A stretch of DNA of 32,000 nucleotides from Methanocaldococcus jannaschii DSM 2661 (GTDB lineage: Archaea; AGJL01; Methanococci; Methanococcales; Methanocaldococcaceae). This document shows, piece after piece, positions 29,165-29,869 of this stretch. The notes under the pieces are model-generated. The model saw only the letters and a list, made by a program, of their open reading frames with translations, had not been told where the DNA came from and ran no database searches. Each line of letters begins with the position of its first letter. The first letter of the stretch is position 1. Both the position numbers and the translations under genes were made by a program. The DNA lies in the NCBI RefSeq assembly GCF_000091665.1, contig NC_000909.1:212871-244870 (forward strand). The letters are read 5' to 3'.

Positions 29165-29731
29165 ATGTATCCAAAGAGAATAGATATAATTAAAAAGATT
29201 GTTGAAAATGTCGGAGAGAAAGAGATAATAGTCAGCAATATTGGAATTCCTTCTAAAGAGCTGTATTATGTAAAAGATAGGGAGAGAAACTTTTATATGC
29301 TCGGTTCAATGGGATTAGCTTCTTCTATTGGCTTGGGATTAGCTTTAAATTGTGAAGATAAGGTTATAGTTATAGATGGGGATGGTTCTATATTGATGAA
29401 CCTTGGCTCACTATCAACAATAGGATACATGAATCCAAAAAATTATATATTGGTTATAATAGATAATTCTGCTTATGGTTCTACAGGTAATCAAAAAACA
29501 CACACTGGCAAAAATACAAACTTAGAAGAAATTGCTAAGGGTTGTGGTTTAGATACAATAACTACAGAAAGTTTAGAAGAATTTGAAAAAGAGTTTAAAA
29601 ATGCTTTAAATGAAGAAAAATGTAAAGTTATTATTGCTAAGACAATTCCATACAATGAAAAATGTTCTAATATAGAGATTCCACCTGTTGTTTTGAAGTA
29701 TCGATTTATGGAAGCGATAAAAAGGAGTTAA
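29165..29731 (+). CDS. comE: Sulfopyruvate decarboxylase beta subunit (ThDP enzyme, PP domain)
   Basis: 188 aa. GSMGLASSIGLG...DGDGS..MN is the ThDP-binding motif. Confidence 0.88.
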   Translation: MYPKRIDIIKKIVENVGEKEIIVSNIGIPSKELYYVKDRERNFYMLGSMGLASSIGLGLALNCEDKVIVIDGDGSILMNLGSLSTIGYMNPKNYILVIIDNSAYGSTGNQKTHTGKNTNLEEIAKGCGLDTITTESLEEFEKEFKNALNEEKCKVIIAKTIPYNEKCSNIEIPPVVLKYRFMEAIKRS

Positions 29732-29812
29732 ACATAGATTGGACATTAATTGGGGCTGAAAGCCCCAACTTAATGGACGTGGGGTATCCCAATAGGGGGT
29801 TTCCCCCTATGG
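29732..29812 (+). repeat. GC-rich two-hairpin element, copy A (immediately 3' of the comE stop)
   Basis: Hairpin 1 spans 29744-29775, with core TTGGGGCT-GAA-AGCCCCAA. An 18-nt core TGGGGTATCCCAATAGGG at 29780-29797 is identical to copy B. Hairpin 2 spans 29789-29812: CC-A-ATAGGGGG-TTT-CCCCCTAT-GG. Confidence 0.75.
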
Positions 29813-29869
29813 AGATATAGATTTATGGAAGCGATAAAAAGGAGCCAAAAATATCATTCATTAAAATAA
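29813..29869 (+). pseudogene. Displaced in-frame relic of the comE 3' end
   Basis: It reads RYRFMEAIKRSQKYHSLK then stop, against the live C-terminus KYRFMEAIKRS then stop. A 25-nt exact repeat occurs at 29703-29727 and 29820-29844. The offset is 117 nt, the same frame as comE. Confidence 0.7.

Follow-up and report, generated by a model that had tools for sequence, protein, structure and literature searches.

The window analyzed here is a stretch of 32,000 nucleotides (nt) of Methanocaldococcus jannaschii DSM 2661 (NC_000909.1, positions 212,871 to 244,870), and near its 3' end lies comE, whose product has homologues named sulfopyruvate decarboxylase subunit beta and carries PF02775, followed by taw1, a gene of wyosine synthesis. 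The 3' end of comE, AAG TAT CGA TTT ATG GAA GCG ATA AAA AGG AGT TAA (29696-29731), is met again downstream of the gene as AGA TAT AGA TTT ATG GAA GCG ATA AAA AGG AGC CAA (29813-29848), in a frame that runs on to a TAA at 29867-29869. Between the two copies sits a structured, GC-rich element, E1, and a relative of it, E2, is found at the end of taw1 (Table 1). Here we describe both as members of a family of small hairpin repeats flanked by long direct repeats of the target, and we argue that the second comE end is probably the scar left when E1 inserted, not the remnant of a longer protein.

The comE gene end and its second copy

A repeat search recovered the duplicate as a 38-nt direct repeat (29699-29736 and 29816-29853) with 89% identity and a spacing of 117 nt. 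An exact core of 25 nt occurs twice in the window, compared to no occurrence expected from 100 shuffles. The coordinates of the two gene ends, the core and the spacing had been noted in a first-pass annotation, and all were reproduced from the sequence and this search. When the limits are set from the repeat family described below, the repeat covers 41 nt (29696-29736 and 29813-29853), of which 35 are identical; the right limit of the upstream copy (DR1) is set by the conserved 5' end of the element, GATTGGACATTAATTG, which is shared with loci L059 and L041.

Since the spacing is a multiple of three, we considered whether it might be meaningful, through readthrough or RNA excision. We rejected this idea: spacings in other family members (104, 119, 121, 128, 135, 147 nt and beyond) are mostly not multiples of three, and the 117 nt shared by E1 and E2 are a coincidence of similar element and repeat lengths.

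Table 1. Features of the comE-taw1 region (positions within the window; DR, direct repeat)
Feature	Position	Strand	Details
comE (sulfopyruvate decarboxylase beta subunit)	29165-29731	+	188 aa; from the open reading frame (ORF) list; stop TAA at 29729-29731
DR1, upstream target copy	29696-29736	+	last 11 comE codons, stop and 5 nt
E1, 76-nt type-B hairpin element	29737-29812	+	5' module GATTGGACATTAATTGGGGCTGAAAGCCCCAACTTAATGGACGT and conserved 3' T-module GGGGTATCCCAATAGGGGGTTTCCCCCTATGG
DR2, downstream non-coding copy of the comE end	29813-29853	+	starts directly after ...CCCTATGG, as in other family members; stop position reads CAA
Native comE-taw1 spacer, including the taw1 ribosome-binding region	29854-29890	+	aligns with FS406-22 and M. 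fervens
taw1 (radical-SAM wyosine-synthesis gene)	29891-30826	+	311 aa; Pfam Radical_SAM and Wyosine_form
DR1', upstream taw1-end copy	30788-30820	+	TTG CAA AAT GAA AAT AGG AAA ATC AAC CCG AAA
E2, type-D family member	30821-30904	+	T-module 30871-30904; aligns with type-D copies at other loci
DR2', displaced native taw1 end	30905-30949	+	translates L*NENRKINPKIFE*

Structure of E1

We then examined the DNA between the two comE ends. Folded as RNA, E1 reaches -38 kcal/mol (z = -4.1), with none of 200 shuffles equally stable, and the minus strand gives z = -3.8. The fold consists of two GC-rich hairpins (29744-29775 and a second from 29792) plus one small hairpin. The structured insert after the comE stop that the first-pass annotation had proposed is therefore present and folds strongly, but it measures 76 nt, not 81; no ORF lies within it. 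At the level of the locus, a structured insert of 117 nt compares with intergenic spacers of 17-46 nt in relatives.

Searches against Rfam 15 gave no match to E1 at the gathering threshold over the whole window and only noise (E > 5) when 29500-30000 was searched at E ≤ 10; nor did related copies in loci L014, L022 and L023 match anything at the gathering threshold. The termini of E1 (GATTGGACATT... and ...CCCTATGG) are not inverted copies of one another. Around E1 and E2, predictions of bacterial-type promoters and terminators returned nothing beyond chance and no oligo-T signature. A 19-nt part of E1 (29766-29784) is 79% complementary to 29947-29965 inside taw1, 162 nt downstream, where a small palindrome was flagged as terminator-like on the minus strand; this complementarity is probably due to chance.

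E1 belongs to a modular family of hairpin repeats

Judged by sequence and predicted fold, E1 is a member of a non-autonomous, modular, GC-rich hairpin-repeat family of Methanocaldococcus. All copies have in common a 3' T-module, GGGTATCCCAATAGGG-loop-CCCTATGG, which forms a bulged hairpin with the motif GGGTATCCCAATAG(R)G-loop-C(Y)CTATGG, and this module is preceded by one of several alternative 5' hairpin modules, type B in E1 and type D in E2. With a covariance model, the T-module of E1 (29777-29812) scored 53.8 bits (E = 1.5e-11), while E2 scored 48.8 bits (model R1). E1 could be aligned over its full length with five other type-B copies (L041, L066, L069, L089 and L091), among which hairpin 1 shows compensatory changes. 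E2, first met in a scan for GC-rich islands as a near-identical 30-mer past the taw1 stop, shares an exact 18-mer, TGGGGTATCCCAATAGGG, with E1, and the hairpins of the two differ by compensatory changes.

A 17-mer scan of species-representative genomes showed that Methanocaldococcus sp. 28A has copies, as does one metagenome-assembled genome of Methanocaldococcus; in total it returned three Methanocaldococcus loci and about 20 matches in unrelated bacteria, roughly the number that we estimate for chance matches to a 17-mer in 596 Gb. M. jannaschii itself is seemingly absent or masked in that collection, as the 17-mer occurs twice in the window yet was not returned. With a degenerate pattern, 58 loci were retrieved from metagenomes, a single series of hydrothermal samples contributing most of them. 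Pooling the window-derived, genome and metagenome loci gave 58 distinct copies, three of them apparently chance matches, so that the family numbers about 55 here. The T-module covariance model, run with filters off, found only E1 and E2 in the window, and on 60 other loci its matches at E ≤ 0.1 numbered 81, including 64 strong, full-length ones.

Across the family the insert measures 66-180 nt. Inverted T-modules occur only in occasional members (at both ends in L046; also in L023). After a korG-like stop in L022 (4250-4411, minus strand), the 5' half of a T-module (GGGGTATCCCAATAGGG) is followed, inside the would-be hairpin, by a structured GC-rich segment of about 100 nt, perhaps a longer relative or an element nested there; it has no Rfam match. 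No kilobase-scale element bounded by matching repeats was found in the roughly 310 kb of loci examined.

The comE locus in relatives

Locus alignments revealed that E1 is polymorphic. In Methanocaldococcus sp. FS406-22, where comE and taw1 are separated by 46 nt, and in M. fervens, where they are separated by 17 nt, both the hairpins and the second copy are absent. The second copy and the hairpins are thus not present throughout the genus, and the earlier proposal that an insertion displaced a copy of the gene end downstream is supported. The same proposal had taken the downstream copy to be a former comE C-terminus, seven residues longer, which element-free orthologues would still show as ...KRSQKYHSLK. 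This part did not survive the comparison: all 19 ComE orthologues aligned end within a few residues of ...RFMEAIKRS, several of them exactly at KRS, and none carries QKYHSLK. Since they all stop at or near KRS, the live stop is ancestral and no earlier C-terminus is preserved in the downstream frame.

Further support came from a fervens-like lineage, L041, whose comE is 96.8% identical to that of M. fervens and 87.7% identical to that of the window. It carries E1 with identical junctions, a more decayed DR2 in which TAA still stands at the stop position, a degenerate E2 and the same NPKL* end of Taw1. The CAA in the window's DR2 is accordingly a later change in the scar, because the M. fervens gene ends ...AAA AGG AGT TAA, as does the live end in the window, and because the downstream copy of L041 keeps TAA. 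Because the same repeat architecture recurs across the family loci, we regard DR2 as the insertion scar of a family-typical target duplication. The C-terminus of ComE is unaltered by E1, because the element landed 5 nt past the stop.

The stem of E1 hairpin 1 is flipped in L041 (6110-6125) relative to the window (29750-29768), TTGGGGCTGAAAGCCCCAA compared to TTGCCCCTGAAAGGGGCAA, with the same loop; this amounts to three simultaneous G-C to C-G swaps at one locus. In other copies (L061 and L074) the whole hairpin is inverted.

The distribution of E1 is patchy, the element being present in M. jannaschii and L041 and absent from FS406-22 and M. fervens, and therefore either repeated precise loss via the direct repeats or transfer by recombination has to be invoked. 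The comE end has also been hit more than once. In L097, whose ComE is 96% identical to that of the window, the comE stop (AGC TAA) is followed at 880-1001 by a type-A member, ATAAGAGGCATTGCCGAGCG..., which is an independent insertion at the same gene end, on a contig that ends before the downstream flank.

Long flanking duplications and gene-end placement

We next aligned the two flanks of each copy with each other. After filtering, 31 copies passed, corresponding to about 23 independent target duplications of 23-65 nt, commonly 50-55 nt; cases in which the repeat is a CRISPR (short palindromic repeats, clustered and regularly interspaced) repeat or another module were left out of this number. 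Throughout the family the upstream repeat ends at the 5' end of the element and the downstream repeat begins 0-6 nt past ...CCCTATGG, a pattern that both E1 and E2 fit; DR2 starts at 29813, immediately after the last position of E1, 29812. The 3' end of the element is precise, and its 5' end is modular and variable, at times with extra sequence. The youngest repeat pairs are identical or nearly so (55/55 in L084, 64/65 in L045 and 30/31 in L060), and even among the youngest copies the length of the duplication varies (26, 31, 50, 55 and 65 nt). Before the right boundary, the sole tendency is toward A-rich sequence (A at -2 in 18 of 23). No microhomology between the element's 3' end and the start of the duplication was seen by eye in the junction list, and a permutation test found no homeology between the element's 5' sequence and native downstream sequence (p = 0.93).

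At 16 independent loci a long ORF co-oriented with the element has its stop inside the upstream repeat; insertion took place between about 10 nt before and 13 nt after that stop, and there was no clear opposite-strand case in the downstream repeat (p = 3e-5). In a few cases (L046, L067 and L071) it is the start of a gene that has been duplicated. The trailer end of a CRISPR array is another location of type-B and type-C copies, which share the orientation of the repeats (L036, L061, L068, L069, L089 and L091, also L066 and L070) and lie between a variant repeat (GTTAAAATCAGACCTCTTGGAGGTTAAAAC) and the final canonical repeat. The presence of copies at CRISPR trailers therefore indicates that the rule is the 3' end of a transcription unit and not the stop codon as such. 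The window has a CRISPR array of its own at 23694-25314, with 24 repeats (ATTAAAATCAGACCGTTTCGGAATGGAAAT, Rfam CRISPR-DR13), the last of them degenerate, and an AT-rich putative leader upstream at about 23300-23690.

Some gene ends have been used repeatedly. Type-A elements stand at the end of the fibrillarin gene in three lineages known from metagenomes, and M. vulcanius has a degenerate type-A element there; in the spacer between fibrillarin and hisB, L088 has two elements in tandem, and M. vulcanius (L093) has a different downstream gene. L074 (7221-7614) holds three family elements and, set apart by them, three copies of the 3' end of a single gene. The product of this gene is rich in cysteine at its C-terminus (...CIKCGTCFFNC...); identity between copies 1 and 3 is 98%, and the middle copy, at 71% identity, has a longer and different C-terminus (..EALLP*).

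E2 supplies the end of taw1

At taw1 the element has entered the protein itself. The last taw1 codon (CTT, Leu) and its TAA stop are supplied by E2, so that the live protein ends ...NENRKINPKL*, and the 5' hairpin of E2 (GAAACTTTAATAAAGTTTC) straddles the junction between DR1' and the element. The repeat consists of 33 nt plus the native tail. Among orthologues, Taw1 of M. fervens ends ...NENRKINPKIFE, exactly as DR2' reads, and that of FS406-22 ends ...KIFEE. The notion of a displaced native C-terminus, wrong for comE, is right for taw1 and for several other family members: compared with its orthologues, DR2' encodes their true end. The stop codon likewise lies in element-side sequence at L034, L040, L052, L059 and L078. 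On these alignments, family elements can rewrite protein C-termini. DR1', beside E2, carries four derived synonymous AT-to-GC changes (AGG, ATC, AAC and CCG), and DR2' equals the native allele of the orthologue.

Synteny breaks directly after E2 (30905-31800 compared with L007 and L008). The window gene 3' of E2 is convergent, on the minus strand at 30964-31800; on the identical contig L001 it encodes 400 aa with matches to Mur_ligase_M and CfbE_C. The gene after taw1 is a VapB antitoxin gene in FS406-22 and a PHP-domain gene in M. fervens. At L077, a family element has a different left flank, and the breaks at E2 and L077 suggest element-associated rearrangements.

Allele-like differences between repeat copies

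Where the two repeats differ, they often do so in a manner expected of two versions of a gene. At the fibrillarin locus of L047, L084 and L088, the flanks are 99-100% identical over 100-600 nt on each side, and clustered, mostly synonymous differences are confined to the repeats; in L084 itself the two repeats are identical. An empty-site fibrillarin allele with the N variant of the downstream repeat was considered and rejected, since all natural proteins have K at this position, so that the change is one of scar decay. At comE, the scar states AAA/AGA TAT AGA and AGC are found as coding alleles in L095, L096, FS406-22 and L097, and DR1 has the fervens-type AAG TAT CGA. Together with a bias of the differences to third codon positions (see below), these observations show that the two repeat copies often behave like two coding alleles, which implicates recombination.

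The explanation for E1 and its rivals

We consider it likely that E1 is a family insertion just past the comE stop, co-oriented with the gene, which duplicated about 41 bp of target, and that the downstream copy is the scar of this duplication. Several findings weigh against such an insertion. Duplications this long and this variable are atypical of classical cut-and-paste transposases, most copies have no terminal inverted repeats, and the left boundary of the duplications shows neither a target motif nor a base preference. Neither a transposase nor an integrase nor a long autonomous version was found in about 310 kb of loci, and there were no family matches in plasmids, phages or viral contigs. 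The empty sites in relatives could be secondary precise deletions, not ancestral states. Finally, differences in the coding parts of the repeats fall on codon positions 1, 2 and 3 in the numbers 11, 7 and 49 (49 of 67 at the third), which departs from an even spread (p = 3e-11) and also from the 43% that we would roughly expect if one copy is under selection and the other decays freely (p = 6e-7). This bias is awkward because it is not predicted if the target is simply duplicated in situ and the scar then decays neutrally, and it bears out, for the family as a whole, the first-pass remark that random decay would not yield mostly silent changes.

The third-position bias is an argument for a rival account in which the mobile unit is a gene end plus element from another lineage, DR1 being the donor allele and DR2 the recipient allele. 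The fibrillarin repeats, which differ synonymously between genomes with near-identical flanks, point the same way, as do the native allele in DR2' next to a derived DR1', the comE scar states that match coding alleles elsewhere, and the combination of variable duplication length, precise 3' end and variable 5' end with occasional extra sequence. Yet the model alone leaves the first arrival at a new, non-homologous locus unexplained, the youngest insertions (L084 and L045) have identical or nearly identical repeats, chance alone should, with two-fold codons, produce agreement with the alleles of other species, and the element's 5' parts show no homeology to native downstream sequence. For E1 in particular, the 25-nt core is identical, and the few differences at the edges fit ordinary decay. 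We therefore think this origin of the comE repeats rather unlikely, and we are just as doubtful about the route that it would take, namely recombination in the homologous gene followed by illegitimate upstream joining of a hairpin-protected 3' end, be it through homology-facilitated illegitimate recombination, strand invasion or heteroduplex insertion.

Somewhat better placed, though still not the explanation that we favor, is the possibility that E1 is a functional RNA element under selection (a 3'-untranslated region (UTR) stabilizer, a processing site, a terminator or a small RNA gene) and that the repeat is incidental. The very stable fold, the hairpin-preserving compensatory changes in type B and between L022 and L023, the strict co-orientation with upstream transcription units including CRISPR trailer ends, and the conserved motif GGGTATCCCAATAG, which suggests a putative protein-binding site, are all in its favor, but there is no Rfam match and no oligo-T terminator signature, close relatives have no E1 at comE, and many copies, shuffled modules and flanking duplications are what mobile DNA characteristically shows. 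Such a role is in any case compatible with exaptation of an inserted element and so with insertion as the origin of E1.

The first-pass annotation had favored a different topology, in which a cassette brings its own gene end and stop and displaces a longer native C-terminus, as integrative elements do when they rebuild an attachment (att) site. The order of gene end, insert and second gene end is indeed what such elements leave, and at taw1 and the five other loci named above the stop does come from the element side with the native end displaced. At comE, however, KRS* is conserved, the extension is found in no orthologue, M. fervens has AGG AGT TAA and the L041 scar keeps TAA; moreover, unrelated targets are each duplicated across the family, so that the gene end is target-derived, and for this insert of only 76 nt no recombinase, integrase or longer element was found. 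We judge this very improbable for comE. The odds are slimmer still for off-target integration by Cas1-Cas2 or a casposase-like enzyme duplicating a ruler-defined stretch of target. The window's CRISPR array lies about 4.4 kb upstream of E1, several family copies stand within arrays flanked by repeats, and Cas1-type integration gives duplications of about 30 bp; the duplications here, however, span 23-65 nt with no clustering at the 30-nt repeat length, the elements stand at the trailer and not the leader end of arrays, and the inserts are homologous and structured, unlike random spacers. Least credible of all is a local tandem duplication, slippage or chance likeness with no mobile element: the copies are close together and directly oriented, but the exact 25-nt match has no expected occurrence, the intervening DNA is not duplicated and belongs to a dispersed family, and more than 20 unrelated loci have the same architecture, which together refute it.

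A possible route of insertion and loss

How a family insertion at comE might have produced this arrangement can be sketched as follows. The duplication would arise at insertion, by fill-in across wide and variable nicks or by an equivalent copy-in coupled to replication or recombination. A non-classical route is favored because the duplications measure 23-65 bp, no transposase partner was found and most copies have no terminal inverted repeats; taken as sequence patterns, the junction features argue against a classical fixed-stagger transposase and favor a polar copy-in coupled to repair, replication or recombination. The upstream copy would keep comE intact, and the downstream scar would then change at its edges, including TAA to CAA. 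New insertions may start with identical repeats and soon be lost by deletion between them, and precise loss of this kind would account for the patchy presence in close relatives. The repeats may become unlike through recombination with other lineages, for which the conserved element is possibly the nucleation point; this would stabilize the insertion, so that such copies would be enriched among survivors. E1 would form part of the comD-comE-taw1 transcript, and its hairpins may there influence how the mRNA is processed or how stable it is.

A bolder proposal, which we put forward tentatively and regard as improbable, is that the elements spread without any dedicated transposase, by a recombination- or replication-coupled process aimed at the 3' ends of transcription units. 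The element, in many cases with part of a donor's gene end attached, would lie on a hairpin-protected DNA end that invades the homologous or a similar gene end and joins upstream; equivalently, insertion could occur into heteroduplex DNA, the repeat copies descending from different strands or lineages. If true, this would unite the variable duplications, the precise 3' and variable 5' ends, the co-orientation and the synonymous differences, and the elements would rewrite C-termini and mark recombination hotspots in hyperthermophilic methanogens.

Significance

For comE the outcome is deflationary: a repeat-element scar, an unchanged gene and no lost C-terminus. The interest lies in the family, in which small, structured and apparently transposase-less elements at times provide new final residues and a new stop to essential genes, taw1 being one. 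Its features together are unexplained by standard transposition and suggest that, in a polyploid archaeon, hairpin repeats are connected with homologous recombination or with the uptake of DNA. Annotation is affected too: spurious relic frames and breaks in synteny result from the elements, and the 3' UTRs within operons are changed by them.

Comparison with known systems

Palindromic repeats called MJRE have reportedly been counted at 141 copies in M. jannaschii, totaling 14.3 kb of a 1.66-Mb genome, some with coding potential; they are said to be about 100 nt long, mostly extragenic and of low identity between copies. Long flanking duplications, co-orientation with gene ends or allele-like copies are not known to have been reported for them. 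Such a density predicts about 2.7 copies per 32 kb, and the window has 2; some MJRE copies contribute host coding sequence, as E2 does for taw1. By organism, size, palindromic nature and expected density, though not by a match of sequence, the present family probably corresponds to MJRE1-3. The MJRE repeats of M. jannaschii are from Suyama, Lathe and Bork (FEBS Lett 2005;579:5281), here as cited in PMC2229807 and PMC2996958. Within what we found of the literature, there appears to be no description of duplications so long and variable, of gene ends being targeted in sense orientation, of C-termini being rewritten or of allele-like repeats.

Several mobile systems resemble the family in part. 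Integrative elements that use att sites leave the same order of gene end, insert and gene end, but their repeats are the carried att sequence, constant at each site, whereas the repeats here are locus-specific and the insert is only 66-180 nt long. Insertion sequences of the IS1634/IS1549 group (IS4) and of the IS1202 group have long target repeats, variable for IS1634; they are bacterial and autonomous, with DDE transposases and inverted termini. The long target duplications are alike, but the family has no such gene or ends. Target-primed retroposition of the kind used by long and short interspersed nuclear elements (LINEs and SINEs) shares the precise 3' and variable 5' end, the occasional carriage of 5' flank, the variable duplications and the want of a consensus at one boundary; there is no A-tail here, and the likeness is one of pattern, offered as an analogy. 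We know of no reverse transcriptase in these genomes, and none turned up. Rickettsia palindromic elements (RPEs), like E2 and several metagenomic copies that rewrite last residues, are palindromic repeats that join host reading frames; they insert in frame inside genes, whereas the present elements stand at the very 3' end and supply the stop, and E1 is untranslated.

The closest likenesses are to two classes of small repeats. As in MITEs (transposable elements of the miniature inverted-repeat kind), the copies are small, non-coding, numerous and structured, with target duplications and presence or absence between close relatives, but MITEs have defined terminal inverted repeats and fixed duplications of 2-15 bp set by the partner transposase, whereas most copies here have no inverted termini, the duplications measure 23-65 bp, the 5' end is built of modules and the examined loci yielded no partner insertion sequence. 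As in repetitive extragenic palindromes (REPs) and bacterial interspersed mosaic elements (BIMEs) of enterobacteria and pseudomonads, GC-rich extragenic palindromes with mosaic modules stand after stops or between operon genes and may stabilize mRNA. REPs, which go with REP-associated tyrosine transposases (RAYTs), however, have no target duplications, which are the rule here, and the sequences are unrelated; RAYT genes were not searched for. Compared feature by feature, then, the family behaves like MITEs or REP/BIME repeats yet fails the defining tests of both.

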